Origin: Clostridia bacterium
Lineage (GTDB): Bacteria; Bacillota; Clostridia; TANB77; CAG-508
Direction: 5' to 3'
NCBI GenBank assembly: GCA_022792395.1
Contig: JAAWAX010000046.1
Coordinates: 4,513 to 68,512, forward strand
DNA: 64,000 nucleotides
Positions 1,013 to 56,589 of the stretch are shown here, piece after piece. The translations under genes and the position numbers were made by a program. The notes beneath the pieces were generated by a model. That model saw only the letters and a list, made by a program, of their open reading frames with translations. It did no database searches and had not been told where the DNA came from. Numbering within the stretch: the first letter of the stretch is position 1; the number at the start of each line of letters is the position of its first letter.

Positions 1013-1089
1013 AGTTTCCCCACCAGTTCCGGGTTTAAATGGGGAAATCTAATAAATTTCCCCATTTAAACCCGGAACTGGTGGGGAGA
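1013..1089. repeat. palindromic intergenic repeat, copy A (arms GTTTCCCCACCAGTTCCGGGTTTAAATGGGGA / revcomp, loop AATCTAATAAATTT)
   Basis: A perfect inverted repeat of about 32 bp visible in the sequence. The same element recurs at 7481, 8514, 21269, 52089 and 56514. It lies between convergent genes, so it likely also acts as a bidirectional terminator. Confidence 0.85.
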
Positions 1090-4352: not shown

Positions 4353-5435
4353 ATGATTGAATGGGAAGATTTAAGTAAATTAAATAAAAAGTATTTTAAA
4401 TTATTACATAAAGATATTGATGTACTTGATAATAGTGGTCATTATTCAATGGGAGAATATGTGAAAAAATTTGAGGAAAAATGTAAACAATATTTTAATT
4501 CAAAATATGCAATAGCTTGTGGAAATTGTTTAGATGGATTAACAATTAGTTTAAGAGCTTTAAATCTTCCTAAAAATTCAGAAGTAATTGTTCCTTCTAA
4601 TACATTTTATGCAACTGTTTTAGCAATATTACGAAATAACTTAATACCCATATTTTGTGAACCTAATATAGATACTTTTAATATAGATGAAAACAAATTG
4701 GAAGAGAGGATAACAGAAAAAACAAGTGCAATTGTTTGTGTGCATTTATATGGTAAGCCTTGCAATATGAACAAAATAAATGAAATTGCCAGAAAGTATA
4801 ATATAAAGGTTGTTGAAGATTGTGCACAATCCTTTGGAGCAATTTACGAAGGAAAAAAAGTAGGAAATTTATCAGATGTAGGAGTGTTTTCGTTTTATCC
4901 AACTAAAAATTTAGGAGGTATAGGAGATGCTGGAATCATAATTACTGACAATGACAAAGTTCATAATTTCTGTGTAAAAGCTAGGAGTTATGGTGGATAT
5001 AATTATAAATATGAAGTTAATGGAATTAATAGTCGTATGGATGAAATTCAAGCAATGTTTCTGTTAAATAAATTTGAAGATATTGAGGAAATTAATAAAA
5101 GGAAAATAGAAAATGCTAATTTATATCTAAAATATATCCAGAATGAAAAAATTGTTTTGCCCAAGATAGACAATAATGAAAAGCATGTATTTTACATATT
5201 TGCTATTAGGTGCAAAGAAAGAGATAAATTGCAGAAATATTTAGAAAGAAATGAAATACAAGCATTAGTACATTATCCAATTCCATTAAATAAACAGCCT
5301 ATATTAGACATTAAAAGGAATGGATTTGAAATAGCTACAGAAATAAGTGATACAGAGTTAAGCTTGCCATGTTCAGCTATGCATACAGAGGGAGAGATAA
5401 TGAAAGTAATAAAAGTTATAAATCAATTTAGATAA
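4353..5435 (+). CDS. DegT/DnrJ/EryC1/StrS-family PLP-dependent (sugar/nucleotide) aminotransferase
   Basis: DCAQSFGA ... GNLSDVGVFSFYPTKNLG carries the PLP-lysine motif of the DegT family. The 360-aa length is typical. Confidence 0.8.
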   Translation: MIEWEDLSKLNKKYFKLLHKDIDVLDNSGHYSMGEYVKKFEEKCKQYFNSKYAIACGNCLDGLTISLRALNLPKNSEVIVPSNTFYATVLAILRNNLIPIFCEPNIDTFNIDENKLEERITEKTSAIVCVHLYGKPCNMNKINEIARKYNIKVVEDCAQSFGAIYEGKKVGNLSDVGVFSFYPTKNLGGIGDAGIIITDNDKVHNFCVKARSYGGYNYKYEVNGINSRMDEIQAMFLLNKFEDIEEINKRKIENANLYLKYIQNEKIVLPKIDNNEKHVFYIFAIRCKERDKLQKYLERNEIQALVHYPIPLNKQPILDIKRNGFEIATEISDTELSLPCSAMHTEGEIMKVIKVINQFR

Positions 5436-5450
5436 TAATTAGGAGAAAAA

Positions 5451-6500
5451 ATGAATTTATATGAATATTTAGAAAAAAATATTGATAAGGCGAAAATTCA
5501 AGAATTTAATGATGATGAATATGAAATCGCTTTAGTCAGATATGTGCTAATGCAAACTGCTAGGATTTTTTATAGAAATAGATTATTTTTTTTAGATGAG
5601 GAACAAATTAAAATTAGACATTTAATATACAATGAACAAATAGATATTAGAAATATAAATTCGTATGATATAGTTTGCTCAAGTTATTGTAGGATTTTAC
5701 AAGAAGTTTTGAAAAACAAATACACAATACAAACAGAATTATTAGAAGCGGATAGAGATGAATTTAAACATATTGTAATGAGATTGATAACTTCAAAAGG
5801 GAATAGATATTTAATTGATCCATTAATGGATTTAACAAATATGAAGACTAGAATGAAAACACATAATTTTGCAACAATTGAAAAGGATAGCAATAATCCT
5901 TATATAAGAATTCAAATTGATGGATTAAAATATATAGATGACGGAACAATTAGGAGAATTGATGAAAAAATTGGATATCTTGAAAATAATAAATATAAGG
6001 ATGATATACAAGACAAAGAAATATTAAATGCTTTAGAAAAAATACAAAATAGAAATAGAGGATTATTAATTGAATGTGGTGATATAGTTATAGCATTTTT
6101 TATGAATAGCATGAGATATTTAAAGATAGATAAAGTTAAATGGAAGAGATTGGAAAAAAATAATAAGATATTTGTAAAAAGAAAGATATTAATTAATGAA
6201 TATAAATATCTGAATGAATTAGAATTGGAAACGAATATTTTAGATCATAAGGAATTTTTAAAGATATTTAAAACAATAGAAGAAAAAGCAATAAAAAATT
6301 CTGATAATATAGGAGAATTCATAGATGTTAGTAAAAAGAGAGATAGCATTGCCATTAATTATGATAAATTATTGGAATTTAAGATTGAAAATAATTTTTT
6401 AGTTGTGTTTAATAAAACAGATTCTATTAAGACAATAATTGAATTTACAGATGAAGGAAGAAAAGTTCAATATCATACTAGTAAGTTTTTAAATGGTTAA
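5451..6500 (+). CDS. hypothetical protein (orphan, no recognisable motif)
   Basis: A long ORF with an RBS, in an operon-like arrangement with the three upstream genes. No family could be assigned by eye. Confidence 0.45.
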   Translation: MNLYEYLEKNIDKAKIQEFNDDEYEIALVRYVLMQTARIFYRNRLFFLDEEQIKIRHLIYNEQIDIRNINSYDIVCSSYCRILQEVLKNKYTIQTELLEADRDEFKHIVMRLITSKGNRYLIDPLMDLTNMKTRMKTHNFATIEKDSNNPYIRIQIDGLKYIDDGTIRRIDEKIGYLENNKYKDDIQDKEILNALEKIQNRNRGLLIECGDIVIAFFMNSMRYLKIDKVKWKRLEKNNKIFVKRKILINEYKYLNELELETNILDHKEFLKIFKTIEEKAIKNSDNIGEFIDVSKKRDSIAINYDKLLEFKIENNFLVVFNKTDSIKTIIEFTDEGRKVQYHTSKFLNG

Positions 6501-7480: not shown

Positions 7481-7547
7481 AGTGGGTATGGTTTAAATGG
7501 GGAAATCTAATAAATTTTCCCATTTAAACCCGGAACCGGTGGGGAAA
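7481..7547. repeat. palindromic intergenic repeat, copy B (left arm degenerate; loop AATCTAATAAATTTT identical to copy A)
   Basis: GTTTAAATGGGGAAATCTAATAAATTTTCCCATTTAAACCCGGAACCGGTGGGGAAA. Shares the loop with copy A, which lies at the other end of the 1122-7323 gene block. Confidence 0.8.
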
Positions 7548-7562
7548 TTAGTTAGGGGATTT

Positions 7563-8423
7563 TTAGATAGGATTAACATGGACAATTGTTTTATAAATTT
7601 TATCTAAAGCATTTATATTATTTTCCAAACTATCTGCTAATTCATGACTTTCAAAGGTAGATAGATTGCCATCTAAAAAAATAGTTAAAAATACAAGATA
7701 TTTATCTCCAACAGGAGTAGAAATAACCTCTTCTACATTTTTAATTTCTTTATAGCTATGAGCAATATCTAAAATTAAATCTTTGGTTTTATCATCTACA
7801 CTAATATCCATTAAAACATTATAGCTTTCGATAAAAATAGTAATACCTGTATAACAAATCCAAATAGAAATACCAACACCAACGATACCATCTAACCAAT
7901 AAATATTAACTAAAGTAAGTAAAATAGAAACTAAAGTACAAATAGTTACGATGCAATCATTTTTATGATCCTTCATATTAGCTTGTAATAATATATTGGG
8001 ATGTTTTGAATAGGCTTTTTTTGTATATAAGAAAAGGCATAATTTTATAAAAATAGTTGCGATACAAACAAAAACTAAAAACCAAGAGAATTGAAGTTCA
8101 CTTCCAAAGATTAGTGTCATAACAGAATCATATAGCAATTTACTAGCTATTAAAATCATAGAAATACTGATAAACATAGAAAAGATATATTCTGCTTTTC
8201 CATGTCCTAAATTATGATCTTCATCATTAGGAACACTTGCTATCTTATTACCAATAAAAGTCATTAAAGAAGCAAAAATATCCCCTGCACTATTGAAACT
8301 ATCTGCTATCATAGCTTGACTATGACTAACAAAACCAACAATAGCTTTTGTGATTAATAAAAAGATGTTTCCAAGAATTCCATAGATACCAGCTTTTTTT
8401 GTCATGACAAATTTCTTATCCAT
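7563..8423 (-). CDS. cation diffusion facilitator (CDF) family metal efflux transporter
   Basis: N-terminal TM region with SHSQAMIADSFNSAGD, a CDF signature (HxxxD), six predicted TM helices and a C-terminal cytoplasmic domain. Confidence 0.7.
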   Translation of the reverse strand: MDKKFVMTKKAGIYGILGNIFLLITKAIVGFVSHSQAMIADSFNSAGDIFASLMTFIGNKIASVPNDEDHNLGHGKAEYIFSMFISISMILIASKLLYDSVMTLIFGSELQFSWFLVFVCIATIFIKLCLFLYTKKAYSKHPNILLQANMKDHKNDCIVTICTLVSILLTLVNIYWLDGIVGVGISIWICYTGITIFIESYNVLMDISVDDKTKDLILDIAHSYKEIKNVEEVISTPVGDKYLVFLTIFLDGNLSTFESHELADSLENNINALDKIYKTIVHVNPI

Positions 8424-8513
8424 ACAATCAACTCCATTTTCCTAGTTTTTTACATTCTTATGATTATAACATAGTAAATAGAAATGATAAAGATAAATTT
8501 TGAAAAAATTCCC

Positions 8514-8631
8514 AACTGATTCCGACTTTTTTTTCACTGGTTTCCTAAATTTAAATGAGGATATACAACAAATGTCCCCATTTAATCCCAGAACCAGTGG
8601 GGAGAACTGATGAGGAAAACCGGAATCAGTT
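8514..8631. repeat. degenerate composite copy C of the palindromic repeat, with an extra outer inverted repeat (AACTGATTCCG ... CGGAATCAGTT)
   Basis: The right arm CCCCATTTAATCCCAGAACCAGTGGGGAG is nearly consensus. The left arm CACTGGTTTCCTAAATTTAAATGAGG is decayed. The outer 11-bp IR motif CGGAATCAG also follows copy D. Confidence 0.6.
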
Positions 8632-8717: not shown

Positions 8718-9056
8718 ATGACAATATTCACAATTATATATATATTAATCTTTATCATATTTGCATTAGTAGCATATGCAATATTACAGATTAAATTATT
8801 TGGGATAAGGGTAAAAGATTTTTGGACATTTATCGAAGCCAACCAAATGTTAGACAAATTGTACAAATTTGCAAAACAATATGAGAATATGTCACCACAA
8901 GAACAATTAATTTATTTAGCAGAAGCAGAAAAAATATTTAAAGCTTTTGATAAAGTGCCAGATAGTTTGTGGGAAGAAGAATATGATAAATATAAAACAG
9001 TTGTATCAAAATATAAAGATATAAAAATGGTACGTTGGGTAGAAGAAAATAAATAA
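8718..9056 (+). CDS. small membrane-anchored hypothetical protein
   Basis: A single N-terminal TM helix followed by a charged soluble tail. A weak call. Confidence 0.35.
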   Translation: MTIFTIIYILIFIIFALVAYAILQIKLFGIRVKDFWTFIEANQMLDKLYKFAKQYENMSPQEQLIYLAEAEKIFKAFDKVPDSLWEEEYDKYKTVVSKYKDIKMVRWVEENK

Positions 9057-9063
9057 TGTTTAA

Positions 9064-9129
9064 TTGGGGACAGTTCTTTTTGCACATTTGGTGTAGTTAA
9101 CACTAATATGCAAAAAGAACTGTCCCCAA
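9064..9129. terminator. bidirectional hairpin terminator (21-bp perfect inverted repeat TTGGGGACAGTTCTTTTTGCA / TGCAAAAAGAACTGTCCCCAA)
   Basis: Seen in the sequence, between convergent genes. Confidence 0.7.
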
Positions 9130-9149
9130 TTGAATGACAAACCTAAATA

Positions 9150-20408: not shown

Positions 20409-21269
20409 ATGAAGGTGATTTTATTGTATTATATTCAAGAAGCTGACAAGCCTAGCTTTCTCTTTAAAATATTTCATATTATAAAATTAGAAGGAAATAA
20501 GATTATACTACCCATTGATGAAAAAACAACAGAAAGTAAAAAGTTACAAAAGTTAGCACGAAAGACTAAAAGAATATTTGAAAAAACGAGAAGTAAAAAA
20601 ATAGTTTTAAGTAAAATTGTACAAAAACAAGAAGAATATGCTAATTTATTATATACTTATGGTTTGGATATTATAGAAGGGAAATGGCTATTTGAAGTGC
20701 TTTCTAATCAAGTATTAGATTATATTTTAGAGAAAAAAGAAATGAAAAAAGAAGAAACGAAAATATCAATTTTAGTAAATGATTTATCAGAAAATATGTT
20801 GGCTAATGTAAGAAAAATTGCTCAAGAATATAAATTGGTGAATATTATAACAAATCATAGAGAAAAATTTAAAAAAATAGAAGAGCAAATATTAGAAGAA
20901 GATGGCATTATGATAACAATTGGAAATAATAAACAAAAGGGTTTAGCAAAAGCAGAACTTATTTTAAATGTTGACTTTCCATCCGAATTGATAAATCTTT
21001 ATCAGATTTATGAAGAAGCAATTATCGTAAACTTAAGAGGAAATGTAAAAATAGAAAAAAAGAGATTTAATGGAATTACTATCAATGATTATGAGATAGT
21101 AGTTGAAAACGAAGAAGAGTTTGATTATGACAAAAAAACAAAATATAAGGCACATCAAATTTATGAAGCCAAAATAAATAAGCAACAACCATTTGAGCAA
21201 ATTATGAAACAAATAAAAAAAGATAAAGTAAGAATTACACAACTGATAGGAGCAAATACAAAGCTTTAG
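20409..21269 (+). CDS. hypothetical protein (occupies the position where ribF usually follows truB)
   Basis: Clean ORF with an RBS. No recognisable motif. Confidence 0.45.
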   Translation: MKVILLYYIQEADKPSFLFKIFHIIKLEGNKIILPIDEKTTESKKLQKLARKTKRIFEKTRSKKIVLSKIVQKQEEYANLLYTYGLDIIEGKWLFEVLSNQVLDYILEKKEMKKEETKISILVNDLSENMLANVRKIAQEYKLVNIITNHREKFKKIEEQILEEDGIMITIGNNKQKGLAKAELILNVDFPSELINLYQIYEEAIIVNLRGNVKIEKKRFNGITINDYEIVVENEEEFDYDKKTKYKAHQIYEAKINKQQPFEQIMKQIKKDKVRITQLIGANTKL

Positions 21270-21355
21270 AGTTTCCCCACTGGTTCCGGGTTTAAATGGG
21301 GAATTTGTCCCCATTTAAACCCGGAACCAGTGGGGAAACTCGGAATCAGTGGGGG
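21269..21355. repeat. palindromic intergenic repeat, copy D (full palindrome plus trailing CGGAATCAGTGGGGG)
   Basis: GAGTTTCCCCACTGGTTCCGGGTTTAAATGGGGA-ATTTGT-CCCCATTTAAACCCGGAACCAGTGGGGAAACT. It overlaps the stop codon of the upstream gene. Confidence 0.85.
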
Positions 21356-24311: not shown

Positions 24312-25700
24312 ATGGACATTTATTTTTATAATACATTAACCAAGAAAAAAGAGATATTCAAACCAATTCATCAAAAAGAGGTAAGAATTTATTCTTGTGG
24401 ACCAACTGTGTATAAAGATGCTACGATAGGGAATATGAGAACCAATCTATTTCAAGATGTATTAAGAAGGGTCTTACGATATAATGGTTATGCTTTAAAA
24501 CATGCTATGAATATAACGGATGTTGGGCATTTAGTTTCAGATGGTGATGAAGGAGAAGACAAGATGTTAAAATCAGCAAGGGAAGAAAAGAAAACACCAA
24601 TGGAAATTGCGAAACATTATACCAAACTGTTTTTTCAAGATTTAGAAGCTTTAAATATCGAAACACCAGAAATTGTTTGTAAAGCAACAGATCATATCCA
24701 AGAAATGTTAGAATATGTAAAAAAATTACTAGAAAATGGTTATGCTTATGAAACCTCAACTGCTATTTATTTTGATATAGCTAAATTAAATCAATATCCA
24801 ATTCTTTCAAATGTTAATATAGAAGAACAAAAAGCAGGTGCTAGGGTCGATGTAGATTCAGAAAAAAGAAGTCCTTATGATTTTGCTTTGTGGATAAAAG
24901 CACCCAAAAATCATTTGATGAAATGGGATAGCCCTTGGGGAGAAAGTTATCCAGGATGGCATATTGAATGCTCTAGCATGGGACAAAAATATTTAGGGGA
25001 ACAATTTGATATTCATACAGGAGGAATTGATTTAATACCAACTCATCATGAAAACGAGATTGCACAAAGTAAAGGAAATTGTGGAAAAATACCAGCAAAT
25101 TATTGGATGCACGGGGAATATTTATTAATCGATGGTGGGAAAATGTCAAAAAGTTTGGGCAATGTTTATTTAATCAAAGATTTAGTAGAAAAAGGATATG
25201 ACCCATTAGTATATCGATTATTCAGTTATTCTTGCCATTATAAAAACAAATTAAACTTTACTTGGGATGGAATGGAAGCAACTGCTAAATCATTAGAAAG
25301 GCTAAAAAATGGATATCAGTTGCATTTAGAAGGAAAAGAAGAAGTAGAAAATGATTTGGTAGAAGAATTAGAAGAGAAATTTCATCAAGCGATTAATGAT
25401 GACCTAAATATGCCACTTGCTATGGGAGTGGTTTGGGAAGTGGTAAAACAAGAGAAGAAATCTTCCAAATGGGCAGAGTTGTTAGCGAAATTTGATACCG
25501 TTTTAGGTTTGAAAATACAAGAACCGATACAGAAAAAACAAGAAGAAATACCACAAGAAATATTAGAATTAGTAGAGCGAAGAAAAGAAGCAAGGCTGAA
25601 TAAAGATTGGGCTAAATCAGATGAATTGAGGGATTTGATTCAAAGCAAAGGTTATGAAATAAAAGATACCAAAGAAGGAGTAGAAGTTCGCAAGATATAA
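24312..25700 (+). CDS. cysS: cysteine--tRNA ligase
   Basis: Class I HIGH-like region (CGPTVYKDATIGNMRT) and KMSKS. Confidence 0.9.
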   Translation: MDIYFYNTLTKKKEIFKPIHQKEVRIYSCGPTVYKDATIGNMRTNLFQDVLRRVLRYNGYALKHAMNITDVGHLVSDGDEGEDKMLKSAREEKKTPMEIAKHYTKLFFQDLEALNIETPEIVCKATDHIQEMLEYVKKLLENGYAYETSTAIYFDIAKLNQYPILSNVNIEEQKAGARVDVDSEKRSPYDFALWIKAPKNHLMKWDSPWGESYPGWHIECSSMGQKYLGEQFDIHTGGIDLIPTHHENEIAQSKGNCGKIPANYWMHGEYLLIDGGKMSKSLGNVYLIKDLVEKGYDPLVYRLFSYSCHYKNKLNFTWDGMEATAKSLERLKNGYQLHLEGKEEVENDLVEELEEKFHQAINDDLNMPLAMGVVWEVVKQEKKSSKWAELLAKFDTVLGLKIQEPIQKKQEEIPQEILELVERRKEARLNKDWAKSDELRDLIQSKGYEIKDTKEGVEVRKI

Positions 25701-25716
25701 TTTAAATTTTGTGTTT

Positions 25717-26130
25717 GGTAAAGTTAGTTCTTCTACCTCTTGGAGCATGAAATACCTTTCCTTTTATGATTACCGCTTGATTGAAACGAGAAATAGAGAT
25801 TGTTAGATAAGAAAATGAGGAATGTTCAAGGCAAGACAGCATTTTATCTTTTTTCATAAATTTAGCGACTCCCTACATAAATCAAGAAATTCTAAAATCA
25901 TTTTATGGCACCCTTCCGTGTCAAGCACGAACTCTTTCCATAAAATGATTTAAGAATTTCTAAATTTACTTCAGTCATACACTTCATTTATTCAAAAAGA
26001 TAAAATACTGTCTTGAACGTGAAAGAGGCTCATTTTCTTACCATACAATTTCTTTTTCAAGTGGAATGAACAAGGTAATCATAAAAGGGAAGGTATTTCA
26101 TGCTCCAAGAGGTGGAAGAACTAACTTTGT
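25717..26130. repeat. 414-bp imperfect palindrome with near-perfect 57-bp terminal inverted repeats (MITE-like or invertible-segment-like element)
   Basis: 25717-25774 (GGTAAAGTTAGTTCTTCTACCTCTTGGAGCATGAAATACC ...) is the reverse complement of 26074-26130 with 2-3 mismatches. The interior is about 70% self-complementary and centred near 25923. Confidence 0.8.
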
Positions 26131-26154
26131 AAAAAAGCAAACTGCAAAGAACAG

Positions 26155-26183
26155 TTGACTTTTAAATTTAAGAGGATTATAAT
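26155..26183 (+). promoter_or_regulatory. galE promoter (TTGACT-17-TATAAT)
   Basis: Consensus hexamers immediately downstream of the palindromic element. Confidence 0.6.
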
Positions 26184-26212
26184 AAAAAAAACGAAAGAAA
26201 GGTGGAATCAAA

Positions 26213-27224
26213 ATGGCAATCTTATTACCAGGAGGAGCAGGATATATAGGAAGTCACACAGCAATAGAATTATTAGAAGAAGGAAAAGAAATTGTAGTCA
26301 TAGATAATTTTTCAAACAGTAGTCCAAAAGTCCTAGAAGCAATTAAGAAAATAACAGGAAAAGATTTTAAATTTTATGAAATGGATTATATGGATAAAGA
26401 AAAGCTAGAAAAAGTATTTGAAGAAAATGAAATAGAAGCAGTTATCAATTTTGCTGGATTTAAAGCAGTAGGAGAATCGGTTCAAAAACCAATTGAATAC
26501 TATACCAATAATATTTCAGGAGCATTGGTATTATTAGATACTATGCGAAAATATAACTGTAAAAAATTTATCTTTAGTTCATCAGCAACTGTATATGGTG
26601 AACCAGAAAGAATCCCTTTAACAGAGGATTGTAGAACAGGAGGAACAACCAATCCTTATGGAACCACTAAATTGTTTATTGAACAAATTTTAAAAGATAT
26701 CTATGCATCAGACAATACATGGGATATATGCATTTTACGATATTTCAATCCAGTAGGAGCACATGAAAGTGGACTAATTGGAGAAGAACCACAAGGAATT
26801 CCTAATAATTTGATGCCATATGTGGTAAGAGTAGCAAGTGGACAATTAAAAGAATTGTCAGTATTTGGGAATGATTATGATACGCCAGATGGAACAGGTG
26901 TGAGAGATTATATTCATGTAGTAGATTTAGCAAAAGGACATTTAAAAGCATTAAATAAAATAGACAAAGAAGAAAAAGGTCTATATATTTACAATTTAGG
27001 TACAGGAACTGGATATAGTGTGTTAGATATGGTAAAAGCCTTTGAAAAGGCAACTAATAGGAAAGTAGCTTATAAAATTGCACCAAGAAGAGCAGGAGAT
27101 ATTGCAACTTGTTATGCGAATCCTCGGAAAAGCTAAAGAAGAATTAGACTGGGTAGCTACTAAAACATTAGATGATATGTGCCAAGATTCTTGGAATTAT
27201 ATTGTTACACAATCAAAGAAGTAA
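26213..27224 (+). CDS. galE: UDP-glucose 4-epimerase, reading frame interrupted by a 1-nt insertion near 27125
   Basis: N-terminal [10 protein letters not shown], YxxxK region. The ORF stops at 27136, but the conserved GalE C-terminus ([25 protein letters not shown]) continues in the +1 frame to 27224. Confidence 0.8.
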
Positions 27225-30581: not shown

Positions 30582-30815
30582 TAGTTTTCATTTACTGTGT
30601 TGAGAGTACTTAAATAGTAATTAATCGACATTGACTCTAGAGAAGATTCTTATGAAAAAGGAAACAGAAGTGATTCAAATAATTAGTAATGACATTGTTT
30701 ATGAAAACAGGATATAACCAATAATATAGCTGGAAAATGAGAAAACAAGATACACATAAAGTAAGACATAATTAATAAATGAAACATAAAACTAAAAAAA
30801 TAGAAAAAGAAAAGG

Positions 30816-30844
30816 TTGCAAAAATTAACATAAAATGGTATAAT
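30816..30844 (+). promoter_or_regulatory. promoter of the polysaccharide locus (TTGCAA-17-TATAAT) with AGGAGG RBS at 30888
   Basis: Seen in the sequence. Confidence 0.55.
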
Positions 30845-30905
30845 GATAATGTTCGAAAAAAGAGGACAAGATATCATTCTAAAAAAATAGGAGGAAATAG
30901 AGAAA

Positions 30906-31552
30906 TGTATGTTAAAGTAAAAAGAGTAACAGATACAATATTAGCTATTATTCTATTAGTCATTTTTGCAATTCCAATGTTAATCACAGCAATTGCGATA
31001 AAAGCAGAAGATGGAGGGCCTATTATTTATAAGTCAAAACGTATGGGAAAAAATTTGAAAGTATTTAATGTTTATAAATTTAGATCGATGAAAACGCACA
31101 GAAAAGAACTTGAAAGTAAATTAAACCATGAAGATATGGTTACAAAAGTAGGAAAGTTTATTAGAAAGACCAGTTTAGATGAATTACCACAATTATTTAA
31201 TATTTTAAAAGGGGAAATGAGTTTTATTGGTCCTAGACCTTGGATACCAGAGTATTATGAATGGTTTACAGAAGAACATAAAAGAAGAGCAGAAGTATTG
31301 CCAGGAATTTCTGGTTTAGCACAAGTAAAAGGAAGAAATGGAATTAGTATTTTTAAAAAGTTAGAATATGATTTAGATTATGTAAAAAATGCTAGTTTAA
31401 AACAAGATGCAAAACTATTTTTTGAAACCGTAAAAGTAGTAGTAACGGAAGCAAATGCAGAAATTACAGAGACTGGAATCAAAGAGGAAATTAATGAGTT
31501 AAAAGAAAATCATTATTTATACATAACACACCCATATAAAGAAGCTATATAA
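30906..31552 (+). CDS. undecaprenyl-phosphate sugar phosphotransferase (bacterial sugar transferase, WbaP C-terminal-domain type; initiating enzyme)
   Basis: Single TM helix followed by KRMGKNLKVFNVYKFRSM ... GPRPW. The ORF-track N-terminal extension (from 30779) lacks an RBS and is rejected. Confidence 0.8.
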
Positions 31553-31566
31553 GGGAAAGATAAAAG

Positions 31567-32760
31567 ATGAAGAAAATAATATTTTTAATACATACTTTAG
31601 GTGTTGGGGGAGCAGAGAAAGTATTAGTGAATTTAGTGAATAATATGGATGCGACTAAATATGATATTACAGTAATGACAGTAATAAATACAGGAGCTTT
31701 TATTGAAAAACTAAATCCAAATATAAAATATAGATACATGTTTAGCTTGCCGAATTTTTTTAAGGGAAAAAAATCTCAAAAGGAAAATTCGGGAAGCTTA
31801 TTGAATAAAGAAAGTATATTGAAAAGTGTACTTTCTAAATTGTATACTTTTATATGGAGACATTTACAATGTAAAAAAATATATCAAAGATATATCAAAG
31901 AAGAATATGATTATGAAGTTGCTTTTTTAGAAGGAATACCTGCTAAAATTATTTCACAATCTACGAACCAACAATCTGTTAAAATTAGTTGGATTCATGT
32001 TGATTTAATAGAAGAAACAAAAAGTGAAAAATTTTTTAGAAGTTTACAAGATGAAAATGATACTTATCAGAAGTTCAATCAAATTGTTGCTGTATCAGAA
32101 ATTGTAAGAGAACAATTTATTAAAAAGTTTTTATTTGATAAAGAAAAGGTAATTATAAAATACAATCCAAATGATGATAGGGAAATTAGAAAAAAAGCAC
32201 AAGAAACTGTTGATGATAAGAAAAATGAAAAACAGTTTTTAATTTGTACAGTAGGAAGACTAACAGCACAAAAAGGCTATGATAGATTAGTAAGAATTGC
32301 AAAAAGACTAGCAGATAACAATATAAACTACAAATTATGGATAATTGGAGTTGGTCCCAATGATGAAACCTTAAAAAAGTATGTACAAGACAATAAACTA
32401 GAGGGTAGAGTTAAATTTTTAGGATATCAAGAAAATCCATATAAATATATAAAACAAGCAGATTTATTTGTTTGTTCTTCTAGAGCAGAAGGATATAGTA
32501 CAGTAGTTTCAGAAGCATGTATTTTAGGAGTTCCTACCGTTACTACTAATTGTTCTGGAATGGAAGAGATTTTGGGGAAAGAAAATGAATATGGAAAAAT
32601 TGTAGAGAACAATGAAGAAGCTTTATATAAAGGAATTTATGAAATGATAACCAATAAACAATTATATGAAACTTATAAAAATAAAATTATGATTCAACCT
32701 GCATTTGTTCAAAATTTATCAGAATCAGTTAAACAAATAGAAGAGATTTTTAATAAATAG
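31567..32760 (+). CDS. glycosyltransferase family 4 (GT-B)
   Basis: C-terminal EGYSTVVSEACILGVPTVTTNCSGMEEIL carries the GT4 E-x7-E motif. Confidence 0.8.
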   Translation: MKKIIFLIHTLGVGGAEKVLVNLVNNMDATKYDITVMTVINTGAFIEKLNPNIKYRYMFSLPNFFKGKKSQKENSGSLLNKESILKSVLSKLYTFIWRHLQCKKIYQRYIKEEYDYEVAFLEGIPAKIISQSTNQQSVKISWIHVDLIEETKSEKFFRSLQDENDTYQKFNQIVAVSEIVREQFIKKFLFDKEKVIIKYNPNDDREIRKKAQETVDDKKNEKQFLICTVGRLTAQKGYDRLVRIAKRLADNNINYKLWIIGVGPNDETLKKYVQDNKLEGRVKFLGYQENPYKYIKQADLFVCSSRAEGYSTVVSEACILGVPTVTTNCSGMEEILGKENEYGKIVENNEEALYKGIYEMITNKQLYETYKNKIMIQPAFVQNLSESVKQIEEIFNK

Positions 32761-32768
32761 GAGAAAAA

Positions 32769-33800
32769 ATGAAAAAAGAACTTGTGAGTATAATTGTTCC
32801 TGTATATAATGGAGAAAAATATATAGAAAAATGTATTGAATCTATCAATAAGCAAACTTACAAAGAGATAGAAATAATTGTCATTAATGATGGTTCAACA
32901 GACAAAACAAAAGAAATATTAGAAGAGATTAGTATGAAACAAAAAAATATGACTATTCTTAATAAAAAAGAAAATAAAGGAACCGCAATATGTAAGAATA
33001 TAGGAATACAACATAGTAAAGGAAAGTACATTTTTTTTGTAGATTCAGATGATACTATAACGGAAGATGCGATAAACAAAATGTTAAATTTATTGAAAAA
33101 GAATAATGGAGATGCTATCAGAACAACATATAGATTTGATTATAATGGTAAAATTGTTAAGGGAAATGAAAAGATTGAAAATATAGCTTTTGCACAAAAT
33201 AGGAAAGTAGAGTTAATACAAAAATTTTTATTAGATCAAATACATGGATTTTGTTCAGGAGTTTTCTTATTAAAAAAAGATATTATCATAAAAAATAATA
33301 TAAGATTTAAAGAAGATATGACAATTATGGAGGACTTTATTTTTTTATTGGAAATCATAAAAAATAGCAATGTTATAGTCACATCAGATTTAGTAACTTT
33401 ATATTATTATCAAAACAATGCTGGATTAACAAAATCTTACCAAGATATTGAAAAAAGATGGTATAATATAAAAGTAAGATTAGATTATACCATAAAAATA
33501 ATACAAAAATATAAATCTTTAGAAAAATATCAAGAGGATAGTATTCGATATTTAGTATCCATGTATATAAAATCTACAAAATATATTTTTCTAAAAAAAG
33601 TAGATATACAAGAAGAAAGACAAAACGTAAAGAACTTAAAAAAAAATGTGAATGATTTAATAAATGGGTATCAGATAGATACTAACAAATTTAATTTGAT
33701 TTGTAAAATAATTTATTATTTTTTAAATAAAGAGAAAACAAAAAGTTTGCATATTATGTTTGGAGTTTTAGATAAAGTAGAAAGAATTAGAAATAGATAA
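32769..33800 (+). CDS. glycosyltransferase family 2 (GT-A)
   Basis: VSIIVPVYNGEKYIEKCIESINKQTYKEIEIIVINDGSTD, DSDD (DxD). Confidence 0.8.
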   Translation: MKKELVSIIVPVYNGEKYIEKCIESINKQTYKEIEIIVINDGSTDKTKEILEEISMKQKNMTILNKKENKGTAICKNIGIQHSKGKYIFFVDSDDTITEDAINKMLNLLKKNNGDAIRTTYRFDYNGKIVKGNEKIENIAFAQNRKVELIQKFLLDQIHGFCSGVFLLKKDIIIKNNIRFKEDMTIMEDFIFLLEIIKNSNVIVTSDLVTLYYYQNNAGLTKSYQDIEKRWYNIKVRLDYTIKIIQKYKSLEKYQEDSIRYLVSMYIKSTKYIFLKKVDIQEERQNVKNLKKNVNDLINGYQIDTNKFNLICKIIYYFLNKEKTKSLHIMFGVLDKVERIRNR

Positions 33801-33811
33801 GAAGGATAATC

Positions 33812-34969
33812 ATGAAAAAAGTAAAAAAAGTATTGAAATTTATTTGGGCTTCTATCATGATGATAATAGCAAATATTATCAATTTGTTTTTCGAAAAAAA
33901 AAGGAAAAAAATTTGGTTGATAGCTGAACAAAGAAACATGGCAAGAGATAATGGAATAGCCTTTTATCATTATTGCAAAGAAAATACCAATCATGAAGTT
34001 TATTATTTGATTAACAAAAAGTCAAGTGATTATAAAGGTATTAAATATAAAGATAATGTGATACAATATGGAAGCTTAAAACATTATAGATACTATTTAA
34101 AAGCTAGTATATTAATAACTTGTTTTGAAGGAACTACTTGTCCAAGTTATTTATTAGAGAAAATATTACAAAAGTATAAAATATTAAAAGCAAAACAAGT
34201 ATTTTTACAACATGGTATTATCAAAGATTATATAGAGGAATTAACCTATTTGAATTATAAACCAGATCTTTTTATTACATCGACTAAACCAGAATATGAA
34301 TATATAGCCCATCATTATGGTCATCCTAAAGGAGTAGTTCAGTTAACAGGTCTTGCTAGATATGACCATTTAGTAAATTTAAGCAATCATAATAAAGTAA
34401 AAATATTAATTATGCCAACTTGGAGAAGATGGGTTACTAATAATTTTGAAACTACAGAATTCTATAAAAATTATATAGACTTAATGAAGAGAATCCAAGA
34501 AAAATATAATTCCCAATATACTATTTTATTTTATCTACATAGTAATTTTCAAAAATATAGTTGTTATTTTCAAAAATTCAAAAATATTAAAATTTTAATG
34601 GCGAATGATTACAAAGTAGATCAATTATTAAAAGAGAGTAATTTATTAATTACAGATTATTCTAGTGTTGCTTTTGATTTTGCCTATTTGTGCAAACCAA
34701 TTATTTATTTTCAATTTGATTATGAAAAAATAAGAAAGCAACATTATCAAGAAGGTTATTTTAATTATCAAAACAATGGTTTTGGACCTATTGTATTCCA
34801 AGCAAGAGATGTTGTGAAGGAAATTGAAAAATGTGAAGATAATAAATTCAATAATTCTGAACAATATATAAATAGGATTAACCAAACTTTTACATTTAAA
34901 GATAATCATAATTGTGAAAGAATTCTAAAGAAAATTGAAGAAATCGAAGGAGAAAAATACAAATGTTAA
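33812..34969 (+). CDS. CDP-glycerol glycerophosphotransferase family protein (TagB/TagF-like)
   Basis: LITDYSSVAFDFAYLCKPIIYF matches the TagF active-site region LITDYSSVFFDY ... . Confidence 0.7.
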   Translation: MKKVKKVLKFIWASIMMIIANIINLFFEKKRKKIWLIAEQRNMARDNGIAFYHYCKENTNHEVYYLINKKSSDYKGIKYKDNVIQYGSLKHYRYYLKASILITCFEGTTCPSYLLEKILQKYKILKAKQVFLQHGIIKDYIEELTYLNYKPDLFITSTKPEYEYIAHHYGHPKGVVQLTGLARYDHLVNLSNHNKVKILIMPTWRRWVTNNFETTEFYKNYIDLMKRIQEKYNSQYTILFYLHSNFQKYSCYFQKFKNIKILMANDYKVDQLLKESNLLITDYSSVAFDFAYLCKPIIYFQFDYEKIRKQHYQEGYFNYQNNGFGPIVFQARDVVKEIEKCEDNKFNNSEQYINRINQTFTFKDNHNCERILKKIEEIEGEKYKC

Positions 34970-36069
34970 AAGCTATGATTTTAGAACTAATATTCTATAT
35001 TATAGGGTATATTATATTTATTGCATGTAATTTATTGTTATATAAAATGATAAAAAATAAAAGAGTAGCAAGATTATTAATTATAGTGTCTCTTATTCTT
35101 TATGCTGCTATTAGATATAATGTAGGTTCTGATTATGATACTTATTATAAACAATACAATAATATTGAAAATTATTTTTCTTCGGTAGAAGAAGTTGTGA
35201 CTTCAGATATACAATTTGCTTTTACATTACTTATGTTTCTTACTAAAAAATATATTATCAACGAATTTGCTATTTTTACAGTAGTAGCTATTATGATTTA
35301 TCCAACTACTGTTAATGCCATAAAAAAATATACTACTAATTTTTTAGAATCCTTGTTTTTGTATTTTTCTTTAGGATTTCATTTAGTGTCCTTAAATATA
35401 TTAAAACAAGTAATATCTATGACAATATTGTTAGAAGGATTTAAAAATATTGTTGAGAAAAAATATTTTAAGATTATCATTATGACAACTATTATGATGA
35501 TTTTTCATATATCTGCCATTATACCAATTCTAATTTTTATGATAGCGCATTTTATAAAACCGACAAATAGAAAATTGTTTATTAGTGTTATCGTGTCTAT
35601 GTTGCTATTAGTTACCTATAAAAGTTTATTAAGTATTTCTATTTTTAGTAGATATGCGATTTATTTAACAGAAATTAATAAAGATTATTTTATTGTAATA
35701 ATAGGGGCAATTGGCTATTTTATATTTAACACAATTTTATTATATATGTTATTAAGGAAGAAAGAAAAGCTAATTAAAAATAATCCACAAAATAAAATAA
35801 TTTTATCGGCTTTAATATTGTCAATTCCAATAAAAGTATTAGGAATTGATAATTTCCCTATTTATAGAATGTCTTTATATATAGACCAATTTCTAATATT
35901 TGTTATACCAGATTTATTAAAGATACAGATAGAAGAAAAAGGAATTGAAAGATATAAAAAGAATTATTTAGTATATTTTTTAATTATGATAATGTGGTTA
36001 ATTTTCTCTATTGTATTTTTAGCACATAACAATTTTTATACTTATACTACCATATTTAATATTGAGTAA
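34963..36069 (+). CDS. EpsG-family polysaccharide polymerase (Wzy-like) membrane protein
   Basis: Multi-TM protein with the EpsG signature RYNVGSDYDTY near the N-terminus. Confidence 0.65.
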   Translation: MLKAMILELIFYIIGYIIFIACNLLLYKMIKNKRVARLLIIVSLILYAAIRYNVGSDYDTYYKQYNNIENYFSSVEEVVTSDIQFAFTLLMFLTKKYIINEFAIFTVVAIMIYPTTVNAIKKYTTNFLESLFLYFSLGFHLVSLNILKQVISMTILLEGFKNIVEKKYFKIIIMTTIMMIFHISAIIPILIFMIAHFIKPTNRKLFISVIVSMLLLVTYKSLLSISIFSRYAIYLTEINKDYFIVIIGAIGYFIFNTILLYMLLRKKEKLIKNNPQNKIILSALILSIPIKVLGIDNFPIYRMSLYIDQFLIFVIPDLLKIQIEEKGIERYKKNYLVYFLIMIMWLIFSIVFLAHNNFYTYTTIFNIE

Positions 36070-36082
36070 CAGGAGAGAATAA

Positions 36083-37618
36083 ATGAGAACAGAAAATTCT
36101 ATTAAAAATTTAATCTATGCATTTGTAGGGCAAGCGATTGGAATTGTCGTAAGCTTAATTACTAGATTTATATTTATTAGATTTTTGTCACAAGAATATT
36201 TAGGAATTGATGGGTTATTTACTAATATATTATCTATCTTAAGTTTAGTGGAACTGGGAATTGGACCAGCTATGACATTTAGTTTATACAAACCATTAGC
36301 AGAAAAAGATGAAAAGAAAATAAGTGCATTAATGAACTTATACAAAAATTCCTATAATATAGTCGGAGGATTAATCATTGTAATAGGTATTCTGATAATG
36401 CCTTTATTACCACTATTTATAAATGAAATGCCTAATATAAACAATACTAATGCTATTTATATTTTATTTGTATTAAATTCAGGATTTTCTTATTTTTATG
36501 CTTATAAAAGATCTTTGATTATTGCAGATCAAAAGAAATATGTAGCAACTTTTTATCGTTATTTATTTTATGTGATTTTAAATATTTGTCAAATTATTAT
36601 ATTAATAATTACGAAAAATTATATACTATTTTTAGTATTGCAAATTCTATTTACGGTAATAGAAAATATAGCAATATCAAAAAAGACACATAAATTATAT
36701 CCTTTCTTAAAAAATAACAAAAAGGAAAAAGTAGAAAAGAAAACAAGAAAAGAAATTTCTAAAAACATGACTGCTATGACAATACATAAAATAGGAGGAG
36801 TAGTAGTAAAATCAACAGACAACATAATTTTATCTAAATTTGTTGGACTAACACAAGTTGCTATTTACTCCAATTATTATTTAATTATTAATGCTGTAAA
36901 TACGGTTTTAATGCAAGTATTTAATTCTATAACAGCAAGTGTTGGAAATTTAAATGTAACAGGAAGTAAGAAAAAATTAAAGGAAGTATTTGACAAAGTA
37001 TTTTTTGTTAATTTTTGGATTTATAGTGTTTCTTCAATATGCCTATATATTTTATTAAATCATTTTATTAAATTATGGGTAGGAGAAAATTATTTGTTTA
37101 GTTGGGAGATTATAACAATCATTGTAATTAATTTCTATTTAACAGGGATGAGAAATACAGTTCTTACTTATAGAGATGCATTAGGACTGTATTGGCAAGA
37201 TAGATATAAAGCAATTTTTGAATCTATTATCAATATAATAGCTTCTATTGTATTGGTTAAAATATTTGATACATTTGGCGTGTTTTTAGGAACTTTTATA
37301 AGTTCTGTTACTACTTGCTTATGGATAGAACCATATATTCTATATAAATACGGTTTGAAAGAAAAGGTATCAAAATATTTTCTGAAATTTTTTGTATACA
37401 CAGTTATATTTATTATAGTAGGACTTATTACTTATAGTGTTTCAAATTTCTTGATACAGATACAAACAATAGGAGGTTTATTGGGAAAGATAATTATTTG
37501 TATATTAATTCCTAATATTTTATACATTTGTATATTTGCAAAAACAAGGGAATTTAGTTACTATCAAGATATGTTAAAAAATATTTTTGAAAAGTTTATG
37601 CACAACAAAGAATGTTAA
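36083..37618 (+). CDS. Wzx-type oligosaccharide flippase (polysaccharide biosynthesis protein, MOP superfamily), paralog 1
   Basis: About 12-14 TM helices. N-terminal SIKNLIYAFVGQ ... LGIDGLFTNILS motif shared with the downstream paralog. Confidence 0.7.
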   Translation: MRTENSIKNLIYAFVGQAIGIVVSLITRFIFIRFLSQEYLGIDGLFTNILSILSLVELGIGPAMTFSLYKPLAEKDEKKISALMNLYKNSYNIVGGLIIVIGILIMPLLPLFINEMPNINNTNAIYILFVLNSGFSYFYAYKRSLIIADQKKYVATFYRYLFYVILNICQIIILIITKNYILFLVLQILFTVIENIAISKKTHKLYPFLKNNKKEKVEKKTRKEISKNMTAMTIHKIGGVVVKSTDNIILSKFVGLTQVAIYSNYYLIINAVNTVLMQVFNSITASVGNLNVTGSKKKLKEVFDKVFFVNFWIYSVSSICLYILLNHFIKLWVGENYLFSWEIITIIVINFYLTGMRNTVLTYRDALGLYWQDRYKAIFESIINIIASIVLVKIFDTFGVFLGTFISSVTTCLWIEPYILYKYGLKEKVSKYFLKFFVYTVIFIIVGLITYSVSNFLIQIQTIGGLLGKIIICILIPNILYICIFAKTREFSYYQDMLKNIFEKFMHNKEC

Positions 37619-37651
37619 ATATACAAATAAAAAAATTAATGAGGAGATAAA

Positions 37652-39169
37652 ATGCGTTCAACCAACTCAATCAAAAATGTAGTAGTAGCAACAGTTATGA
37701 ATTTAGTAATTGTGCTAATAGGGTTTGTGGCACAAAGAATCTTTTTACAAACTTTAGGAACAGAATATTTAGGAATTAATGGCTTATTTACCAATATCCT
37801 TTCTATGTTAGGTATCATAGAATTAGGATTAGGTTCTGCTATTATTTATCATTTGTATCAACCAATTGCAGAAGATAACAAAAGCAAGATAAAATCCTTA
37901 ATGTTATTCTACAAAGTAGGTTATAGAGTAATTGGTTTTATCATTGCCATTCTAGGATTATTGCTAATTCCATTTTTACATTTCATAGTAGGAGAAGTTA
38001 GTATTCCAGAAAATATTATCTACATTTATCTATTATTTTTAATTGATATTGTAGCATCCTATTTGTTGACTTATAAAAGATCTATTCTTTATGCAAACCA
38101 AAAAACTTATGTTATAAATATAATACACATAGGCTATTTAATTGTAATGAATGTTACACAATTAGCTATATTAGTGCTAACTAAAAATTATATTGCCTAT
38201 TTATGGATAAAAATAATATGTCGCATATTAGAAAATGTTGTGATTACTTTAATTGCTAATTATATGTATCCTTATATTAAAGACAAACAAATAGAGCCAT
38301 TAGATAGAAAGTTAAGAAAAAGTATTTTTACAAAAGTAAAAGGATTAATCTATCACAAAATTGGTAGTTTTATTGTGTTAGGAACTGATAATATTCTTAT
38401 TTCTTCTTTTTTAGGCATAGTAACAGTAGGATTGTATTCGAACTATAATCTAATAATAGCAACTTTAAATAATTTGTTTTCGCAAGTATTTAATTCCATT
38501 ACAGCTAGTGTTGGAAATTTATTAGTAGAAAATGATAGAAAGAAATCTTACTTTATCTATAAAAATATTTTGTTTTTTAACTCATGGATATATGCTTTTG
38601 CTTGCACAGGATTGTTGTGTGTCATGGAACCATTTATTAAAGTATGGATAGGAAGCGAATATCTATTATCTTTTGGTGTTTTAATTGCATTAGTAATCAA
38701 TTTCTATTTTCAAGGAATGAGAAAAACATGTAATACCTTTAAAGAAGCGGCAGGAATTTTCTATGAAGACAGATATGTAGCTGTATTAGAATCCATTGTT
38801 AATATTGTGGCATCTATTGTTTTTATAAAAATATTTGGATTAATAGGGGTGTTCATAGGAACGATTATTAGTACATTTGTCTTATTCTTTTATGGTTATC
38901 CGAAATTTGTATATAAACCCTTGTTTGAAAGAACGTATTTACAATATATAAAAGATTACATTCCTTATATAATGGGAACTATTTTATCAGTAGTCATTAC
39001 TTATTTTGCTATTTCTTATATACACATGAATAATCCTATTTTACAAATTGTTATGAACATCATTTTGGTAGGTATTATTCCGAATACCATTCATACAGTA
39101 TTATTCTATAAAACAGAGCAATTTAAATATTATAAGGAATTATTTGTAAAAATGATAAAAAGAAAATAA
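37652..39169 (+). CDS. Wzx-type oligosaccharide flippase, paralog 2
   Basis: Collinear with the upstream gene (SIKNVVVATVMN ... LGINGLFTNILS ... ITASVGNL). Confidence 0.7.
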   Translation: MRSTNSIKNVVVATVMNLVIVLIGFVAQRIFLQTLGTEYLGINGLFTNILSMLGIIELGLGSAIIYHLYQPIAEDNKSKIKSLMLFYKVGYRVIGFIIAILGLLLIPFLHFIVGEVSIPENIIYIYLLFLIDIVASYLLTYKRSILYANQKTYVINIIHIGYLIVMNVTQLAILVLTKNYIAYLWIKIICRILENVVITLIANYMYPYIKDKQIEPLDRKLRKSIFTKVKGLIYHKIGSFIVLGTDNILISSFLGIVTVGLYSNYNLIIATLNNLFSQVFNSITASVGNLLVENDRKKSYFIYKNILFFNSWIYAFACTGLLCVMEPFIKVWIGSEYLLSFGVLIALVINFYFQGMRKTCNTFKEAAGIFYEDRYVAVLESIVNIVASIVFIKIFGLIGVFIGTIISTFVLFFYGYPKFVYKPLFERTYLQYIKDYIPYIMGTILSVVITYFAISYIHMNNPILQIVMNIILVGIIPNTIHTVLFYKTEQFKYYKELFVKMIKRK

Positions 39170-39193
39170 AAGTAATGAAGAGGGAGGCGAAAA

Positions 39194-39685
39194 ATGAAAG
39201 TAAATACGATAAGAATAGTGCTTCTGTTTCTCTTGTTAGCCAATTTTTCAATCATATTTATGTTTTCTAATCAAAATTCTGAAGAATCAGGGAATATAAG
39301 TAGTAAAATTGCAAGAATGGTGGAACAAAAAACAGAAAAAGCAATCGAAGAGAAAGAAGAAAGTGTAGGAAGAACAGAGAAGGTAATACGTAAAATAGCA
39401 CATTTTTCTATTTATACTTCGCTTGGTTTTTTATTAATGGCTTTTGTAAGCACCTATGCGTTAACACAAAGAAAAAGAATTTTAGTAAGTTTAAGTATTG
39501 GTGTTTTGTATGCCATTTCAGATGAAATACATCAAATATTTGTACCAGGAAGAGCTTCTCAAATAACAGATGTTATGTTAGATTCTATGGGAATTTTATT
39601 TGGAATATTGGTAGTTTTAATGATATTGAAAATCAAGCAAAAAATAAAGAATAAAAACAATAAATTAGTTGAAAAACATGGATAA
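39194..39685 (+). CDS. VanZ-family membrane protein
   Basis: ISDEIHQIFVPGRASQITDVMLDSMGILFG is the VanZ-like motif. Confidence 0.65.
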   Translation: MKVNTIRIVLLFLLLANFSIIFMFSNQNSEESGNISSKIARMVEQKTEKAIEEKEESVGRTEKVIRKIAHFSIYTSLGFLLMAFVSTYALTQRKRILVSLSIGVLYAISDEIHQIFVPGRASQITDVMLDSMGILFGILVVLMILKIKQKIKNKNNKLVEKHG

Positions 39686-39878
39686 ATATGTTAAAATACA
39701 AACATAATTTATCTATGTTTTTTGTTAGGAAGGATAGATAAAAATTTTATTCTAATTTGCGATTTTTATTCCAAACAATTTATATCATAATTTATTTTAT
39801 TTCCAATATTTTTATAAAGCAAAGAAGTATGATAGTAAATAGATATAAATAATCCATTAAAAGGAAGGAGAAAAACTT

Positions 39879-56513: not shown

Positions 56514-56589
56514 ATTCCCCACTAGTTCCGGGTTTAAATGGGGATAGTTATTTGAACTATCCCCATTTAAACCCGGAACTAGTGGGGAA
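56514..56589. repeat. palindromic intergenic repeat, copy F (perfect; the loop itself is palindromic)
   Basis: TTCCCCACTAGTTCCGGGTTTAAATGGGGATAGTTATTTGAACTATCCCCATTTAAACCCGGAACTAGTGGGGAA lies between convergent eno and the vWA gene. Confidence 0.85.

Follow-up and report, generated by a model that had tools for sequence, protein, structure and literature searches.

What is the long palindrome that lies between cysS and galE in this genome, and how has it been kept? The whole stretch of DNA analysed, 64,000 nucleotides long, is called the window here. A preliminary description had reported a 414-bp imperfect palindrome at 25717-26130, which is real and far above chance: reverse-strand self-BLAST of the window gave a single alignment of 409 nt with 76.5% identity at 25720-26128, its ends within 2-3 nt of those first given. 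The palindrome is an inserted non-coding hairpin element. The reading that we favour, with confidence only slightly above even, is that of a composite hairpin in which a lineage-specific family core, a ~296-nt unit and a private 55-bp outer stem are nested, which is maintained by template switching and which probably forms a large 3′ hairpin. The features of the locus are the following, in window coordinates.

24312 to 25700, + strand: cysS (cysteine--tRNA ligase; NCBIfam TIGR00435, 457 bits; ORF list)
25720 to 25774: outer left arm, 55 nt, private to the locus (53/55 complementary to 26074-26128; absent from L097)
25775 to 25835: left middle layer of the ~296-nt unit (homology to L075; arm comparison)
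25836 to 26014, + strand: family core hairpin, 177 nt (covariance model, 147 bits; nhmmer E = 2e-33; covariation)
26015 to 26073: right middle layer of the ~296-nt unit (homology to L075; end of the L097 palindrome)
26074 to 26128: outer right arm, 55 nt (complement of the left arm; present in L097 without a left partner)
26155 to 26183, + strand: galE promoter TTGACT-17-TATAAT (11/12 consensus positions; outside the palindrome)
26213 to 27136, + strand: galE (UDP-glucose 4-epimerase; TIGR01179, 414 bits; translations)

An inverted-repeat search resolved four pairs of nested inverted repeats (I1-I4) with a common centre at ~25924. The complementarity of the outer arms (96.4% over 55 nt) agrees with the 57-bp, ~96% complementary ends first described, and their two mismatches (25734/26114 and 25759/26089) are both T.G, corresponding to G.U on the + strand. 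Arm identity by sixths, from the outside to the centre, is 0.97, 0.74, 0.74, 0.76, 0.63 and 0.71. A 38-nt arm probe has two sites in the window, both of them the arms, where none is expected. The earlier suggestion that the segment can fold into one very long hairpin applies to either strand (about −195 kcal/mol): the RNA fold reaches −193.8 kcal/mol (z −24.4) for the + strand and −197.2 kcal/mol (z −19.2) for the − strand, each better than 100/100 shuffles. The ORFs overlapping the element are mechanical frames of 43-51 aa, in line with the earlier statement that it contains no ORF. They are not conserved across the members of the family described below, since loop lengths vary by non-multiples of three.

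The element begins 19 nt downstream of the cysS stop codon (25698-25700) and, as stated in the preliminary description, lies upstream of the galE promoter. The sequence TTGACTTTTAAA...TATAAT is also found upstream of galE in L016, L019, L024 and L026, all of which lack the element. Inside the element there are 4 promoter-like sites, against 2.8 ± 2.0 in shuffles. A scan of 25500-26300 detected nothing resembling a terminator. An intrinsic (Rho-independent) terminator was considered and rejected: this type needs a short G+C-rich stem and a U-tract, and the element has an AT-rich stem of ~200 bp followed by GTAAAAAAGC. As there is no U-tract, it is not a canonical intrinsic terminator. The attenuator role for galE that had been put forward is unlikely because the element lies upstream of galE’s own promoter.

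Several features of the surrounding genes were recorded in passing. The galE gene is frameshifted near its 3′ end (27100-27224): its frame stops at 307 aa, and the conserved GalE C-terminus (AKEELDW...MCQDSWNY) runs on in the next frame to 27224. One extra A in CGGAAAAGC explains the shift (GalE of L013 has 337 aa); the gene may be a pseudogene, be truncated or undergo recoding. Downstream of galE, a MATE gene and argS lies a large surface-polysaccharide cluster (30779-49292) with Bac_transf, GT1 and GT2 glycosyltransferases, Glyphos_transf, EpsG, two Wzz proteins with AAA_31 kinase, CpsB and phosphoglucomutase. The priA gene is apparently split in three ORFs (59536-60423, PriA_3primeBD; 60296-61360, Zn_ribbon_PriA and helicase; 61392-61805, PriA_C), a split also found in three MAGs. 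A ~480-nt tandem duplication with ~82% identity (62570-63399) lies in a 681-aa HTH-repeat ORF called in L113/L114; this gene has repeated HTH, sigma-70 region 4 and DprA-SAM-like matches, and the MAG L115 differs in repeat content.

Invertons are phase-variable invertible promoters of gut bacteria. The element resembles them in having inverted repeats of 55 bp around ~300 bp just upstream of galE, a surface-polysaccharide-related gene, with the polysaccharide cluster nearby, and a recombinase-invertible segment controlling galE and the downstream polysaccharide genes had been proposed. We give this very little credence. CysS or GalE is identical in seven MAG/Logan assemblies, in which the 512-bp spacer is base-identical and in the same orientation; with L097 added, a single orientation is observed throughout (these being assembly consensus sequences). 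Some contigs of the seven assemblies break within the palindrome. Unlike in invertons, the repeat does not enclose the galE promoter, which relatives lacking the element also conserve. Promoter-like sites in the interior do not exceed chance, and the Pfam/NCBIfam-annotated ORFs of the 64-kb window include no invertase or integrase, although a recombinase could act in trans. As the interior is itself a quasi-palindrome, inversion would in any case change little.

Among species representatives, the closest are uncultured low-GC Clostridia of the “Clostridium sp. CAG:343/389” type, whose CysS shares no more than 88% identity. The cysS-galE adjacency is usually kept among 80 orthologous loci and spacers are mostly 8-150 bp long (53 bp in L012, the closest relative). 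Since related species usually have 8-150 bp at this site, the element is an insertion. The spacers of some relatives hold only the conserved galE promoter and those of others have no promoter. The flanks (TTTGGT/AAAG ... CTTT/GTAAAA) show no clear direct repeat, and the empty spacers of relatives are too diverged to align with them. Comparison of filled and empty sites upstream of PBP1A meets the same limit: the PBP1A N-terminus is poorly conserved, which makes extrapolated coordinates unreliable, and the spacers are not alignable. Inserts of 1.2-2.6 kb were also observed between cysS and galE in L013, L034, L043, L061, L062 and L075; the one in L013 (5945-7270) codes for a protein of 441 aa whose N-terminus has a hydrophobic, prepilin-like segment. 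The cysS-galE spacer seems to be a recurrent insertion site.

The central part of the element is not restricted to this locus. Searches by blastn, nhmmer and a covariance model (R1; covariance search over 791 kb) identified a shared part of ~150-177 nt in relatives, where 10 non-redundant elements carry it at some five intergenic sites. The family members are listed below.

window, 25836-26014, + strand
L097, same locus as the window
L073, L059, L075 and L078 (two opposed copies), upstream of PBP1A
L077, downstream of a 223-aa gene
L087 and L082, after galE, occupying the gap to the convergent gene
L034, 113-291
L013 (second-closest relative), 150 nt after cysS

The copies follow at least five different genes, and most start within ~30 nt of the upstream stop codon. 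They are polar: the window core scores 147 bits against the covariance model in the forward (+) direction and 58 bits in the reverse (−) direction, and 11/12 members run in the same direction as the upstream gene, a count in which several copies share one locus and are therefore not all independent. The core has a conserved bubble (25862-25877 / 25969-25985) and an apical loop (25909-25937).

Conservation of the fold was assessed on 11 non-redundant members and 44 pairs, against 500 shuffles and slid partners. In the family, 91% of cells are paired (63% with shuffled partners, 35-47% with slid partners), double-sided changes occur in 42/44 pairs (25 ± 2.6 shuffled, 17-25 slid) and the covariation score is 0.69 (0.22 shuffled, about 0.15 slid). 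These values were reached by 0/500 shuffles. The stems thus covary, and conservation is higher in the unpaired bubble and loop columns (0.74) than in paired ones (0.66); the motifs ATTCCTCGGCT, GCACATTCGTCATTTCAT and GGCACCCTTCC...GAACTCTTTCC recur even in distant members. The core belongs to a previously undescribed, lineage-specific family of polar structured hairpin repeats of uncultured low-GC gut Clostridia, defined by conserved unpaired motifs (bubble, apical loop) in stems that vary in sequence yet stay paired.

Covarying stems, better conserved unpaired motifs, strand polarity and an orientation consistent with the upstream gene are also what favours a novel structured ncRNA gene or a cis-acting 3′-UTR motif whose loops bind protein or RNA and whose outer stems are incidental, and both outer-arm mismatches of the window are G.U on the + strand. 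We nevertheless think that this is rather unlikely. Arm mismatches in 21 long palindromes comprise 58 G.U and 62 A.C on the + strand, showing no strand bias, and one-sided G.U intermediates are rare in the family alignment (13 cells) relative to double-sided swaps (121 cells). Presence and placement vary among close relatives, and one spacer (L078) holds two opposed copies. The element has no excess of promoter-like sites over chance, and the terminator scan was negative. There was no Rfam 15 match at the gathering threshold (6S RNA, ribozymes and riboswitches included) in the window or in nine loci; permissive thresholds gave generic miRNA-hairpin matches only, all of them sub-threshold.

Polarity, size and conserved unpaired motifs are likewise shared with the ssoA single-strand origins of rolling-circle plasmids, polar hairpins of ~160 nt whose unpaired motifs are recognised once the single strand has folded (PMC5703833, PMC4598088). 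That the element is a relic of an ssoA-like origin from an integrated plasmid is scarcely credible, even if the hairpins have a common size of ~160-180 nt and the minus-strand bubble motif ATAAGCCGAGGAATGTA matches the RSB TTATGCCGAGAAAATTT (PMC4598088) at 11/17 positions. Motif identity and arrangement differ: the RSB-like motif lies on the 3′ side of the apical loop where an ssoA origin has it on the 5′ side, and CS-6 (TAGCGT) is missing from the loop. The element is chromosomal, without rep or mob genes nearby, and copies of the family lie behind housekeeping genes. Plasmid and phage blastn with the window element and with the consensus-like L073 copy found no similarity, and a core-motif scan of viral contigs found nothing.

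Around the core the element is layered. The middle layer is common to the window and L075 only, with homology spanning 25782-26057 and including an asymmetric internal loop (GAATG, 25820-25824, opposite AGAGG, 26024-26028). Core and middle layer make up the ~296-nt unit, which spans about 25778-26073 and ends at ATGAACAA (26066-26073); the palindrome of L097 ends at the matching TTGTTCAT / ATGAACAA. The unit boundary TTGTTCAT...ATGAACAA (end 26073) falls on the inner edge of the outer arms, which therefore form a layer of their own. Their sequence is private. Outer-arm 18-20-mers have 0 matches in 185,579 species-representative genomes, and outer-arm probes have 0 matches in viral contigs. A metagenome scan gave one true match, the same locus in L097; 18 other matches were rejected as chance 18-mers in unrelated higher-GC DNA. 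No further copy of the outer arm or of the core was found in ~79 kb of the same species (the window and ~15 kb of MAG contigs). The contrast first drawn between well-conserved ends and a diverged interior is right in that the ends are near-perfect complements of each other and is otherwise reversed: the ends are unshared and the interior is the conserved family part.

This layering bears on two further explanations. A classic MITE would be a non-autonomous transposon with 55-57-bp terminal inverted repeats (TIRs) bound by a DDE transposase encoded elsewhere; the element has long near-perfect TIRs, is non-coding and intergenic, and is missing at orthologous sites of relatives. Its TIRs are shared with no other element, its interior being the shared part, and L097 has the right TIR without the left. 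The ~79 kb hold no other copies, no transposase is encoded in the window, and the flanks have no clear target-site duplication. A MITE in this sense is quite improbable; what stands of the earlier suggestion is that of a repeat element, the closest of the options first listed because the centre belongs to a dispersed family. The second explanation is chance at this one locus, a single event of inverted duplication in spacer DNA with neither family nor function. The outer arms, unique to the locus and near-identical as for a recent inverted copy, would suit it. As an account of the whole element it is very unlikely: the central 177-296 nt are homologous to other loci and species and have covarying stems and conserved loops. 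This reading is refuted for the core and is viable for the outer 55-bp layer only. That layer could be a copied flank, by which the palindrome was extended, or a gene-end palindrome that was there before the unit and received it.

L097 provides a variant of the locus. It shares 97.6% identity with window 25799-26370 and has the same orientation. Left of the unit there is neither the outer left arm nor cysS; this side carries tRNA-Glu(CTC) divergent from galE and a terminator-like hairpin. In a four-way arm alignment the right outer arm is kept in L097 without its partner, and the L097 left arm follows the right-arm version over ~65 nt, with a few private differences and with loss of the GAATG/AGAGG loop. 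From the core bubble inwards L097 is identical to the window. One arm may have been overwritten from the other, together with a separate rearrangement at the unit edge. Alternatively, a paralogous ~296-nt unit beside tRNA-Glu may have become joined to the copy of the unit at galE, through recombination or during assembly. Should L097 be a recombinant or a chimeric contig, its support for arm extension would be weaker.

How are the arms kept complementary? Many of the double swaps in the family alignment are AU<->UA flips without a wobble intermediate. Together with the lack of strand bias among mismatches and the rarity of G.U intermediates, they fit templated copying from arm to arm better than stepwise compensation in RNA. 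Published work documents that template switching can make inverted-repeat arms more alike and longer, and that it both generates hairpins and preserves them (PMC8794818, PMC13100816). It would account for the multi-base “compensatory” changes, for a near-perfect outer layer round an older diverged interior and for the L097 tract. Quasipalindrome template-switch events in the literature are short, from a few to tens of nt (PMC8794818, PMC13100816, PMC7202029), whereas the tracts considered here are of 55-65 nt in a 400-nt palindrome, with a mechanism deduced from sequence patterns.

Taken as the favoured composite hairpin, the element could have formed as follows. The unit would have reached its several intergenic sites by means of a trans-acting function that recognises the folded hairpin and the motifs left unpaired in it, in a REPIN-like manner, and not by way of terminal inverted repeats. 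Copying between arms at the DNA level, by template switching during replication, would keep the arms complementary and extend the palindrome outwards; the near-perfect outer 55 bp would be its product. The outer stem could otherwise be an older gene-end palindrome whose loop received the unit. Transcription of cysS would place the ~200-bp RNA hairpin at the 3′ end of the mRNA, where it may act as a barrier, a stabiliser or an insulator between cysS and the separately promoted galE. Against spread count the single copy of the core, with no extra outer arm, in ~79 kb of the same species; moreover, four of the family copies are at one locus and possibly orthologues, so that they are not independent insertions.

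Among known systems, ERIC/IRU, Correia, RUP and BOX are imperfect palindromes, intergenic and co-transcribed, whose presence at orthologous sites varies and which can influence mRNA stability or termination. ERIC-type families and MITEs are defined by conserved ends or TIRs, often with target-site duplications. The element is alike in being an imperfect intergenic palindrome with variable presence at orthologous sites. Unlike ERIC-type repeats, it has ends private to each copy and a shared interior, and its stem is several times longer. REPINs are REP doublets of ~100 nt that form hairpins; RAYT tyrosine transposases mobilise them, and their copies, which number from tens to hundreds, come with an associated RAYT gene (PMC3116915). 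Like them, the family is non-coding, extragenic and near gene ends, it can form a hairpin as ssDNA or mRNA, and the hairpin is the conserved unit; the compensatory change between halves by which REPs and REPINs are recognised is found here too (91% paired, 42/44 double changes). Unlike them, the core measures 177 nt and complete hairpins reach 430 nt, conservation lies in internal loops and not in terminal REP sequences, and no transposase or HUH/RAYT-type gene is present in the window. One copy per ~70-80 kb sampled suggests a low copy number.

Other palindromes occur in the window and in its relatives. A shorter REP-like family, distinct from the core family, consists of near-perfect palindromes of ~70-75 nt (TTTCCCCACYRGTTCCGGGTTTAAATGGGGA...) at window 1017-1087, 21269-21341 and 56515-56589, with a partial copy at 7490-7530. 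Its copies are 82-89% alike, each lies directly 3′ of a stop codon, and none has a U-tract. At the site of window 21269, L073, L059, L075 and L078 carry the core family instead of the REP-like palindrome. Near-perfect palindromes of 40-76 nt are also found immediately 3′ of other stop codons in the window (76 nt at 9059-9134, 40 nt at 49293-49332). A 137-nt gene-end palindrome (44651-44787) has relatives at L028:36-181 and at L021:852-1069 and 8369-8528. A second dispersed intergenic family (L015:964-1211, L020:919-1207, L033:1064-1272, L019:~5400-5660 and, as reverse complement, L077:~8930-9070) has a higher-GC interior (GGTTGCTCCAATCGCACTCGC...GCTTACGCGGTGTTGCAAAAATAATAG) with AT-rich inverted repeats at both sides, and is often found inside GGGGAC-type palindromes; its L077 copy has no Rfam match. 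At the site after galE, L082:6488-6827 is a 340-nt hairpin (−193 kcal/mol) and L084:6524-6665 a 142-nt palindrome, 97.7% identical to the inner stem of L082 in the opposite orientation, apparently without the central ~100 nt and with different outer stems. Comparison of the two sequences suggests deletion of the centre and turnover of the outer stem. MAG contigs often end at or inside palindromes (end of L005, start of L009, ends of L111 and L112 at ~window 1004), which indicates that palindromes fragment short-read assemblies.

The element fits best among the bacterial interspersed hairpin repeats (REPIN/ERIC-like); its design is uncommon, in that conservation lies in the loops and the ends are private. 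We also entertain, tentatively and with rather more doubt than confidence, that the core is a new class of polar hairpin, acting as RNA or ssDNA, whose loops are read by a predicted dedicated protein that places it at gene 3′ ends, and that its palindromes grow in layers by template switching. The copy in the window would then be a three-layer “onion” of successive events. Palindromes longer than ~150 bp are generally held to be unstable in bacterial chromosomes; this lineage nonetheless carries many palindromes of 140-430 nt right behind genes. These break MAG contigs and may join unrelated loci, which is relevant to the assembly of these genomes. If the family is mobile, its recognition would go through internal loops and not through ends, unlike that of MITEs. 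If the layers arise by template switching, the locus would show this kind of mutation in nature at an unusually large scale and in an unusually readable form. If growth in layers is true, these bacteria would offer a natural system for the origin and tolerance of palindromes with ~200-bp stems in bacterial chromosomes.
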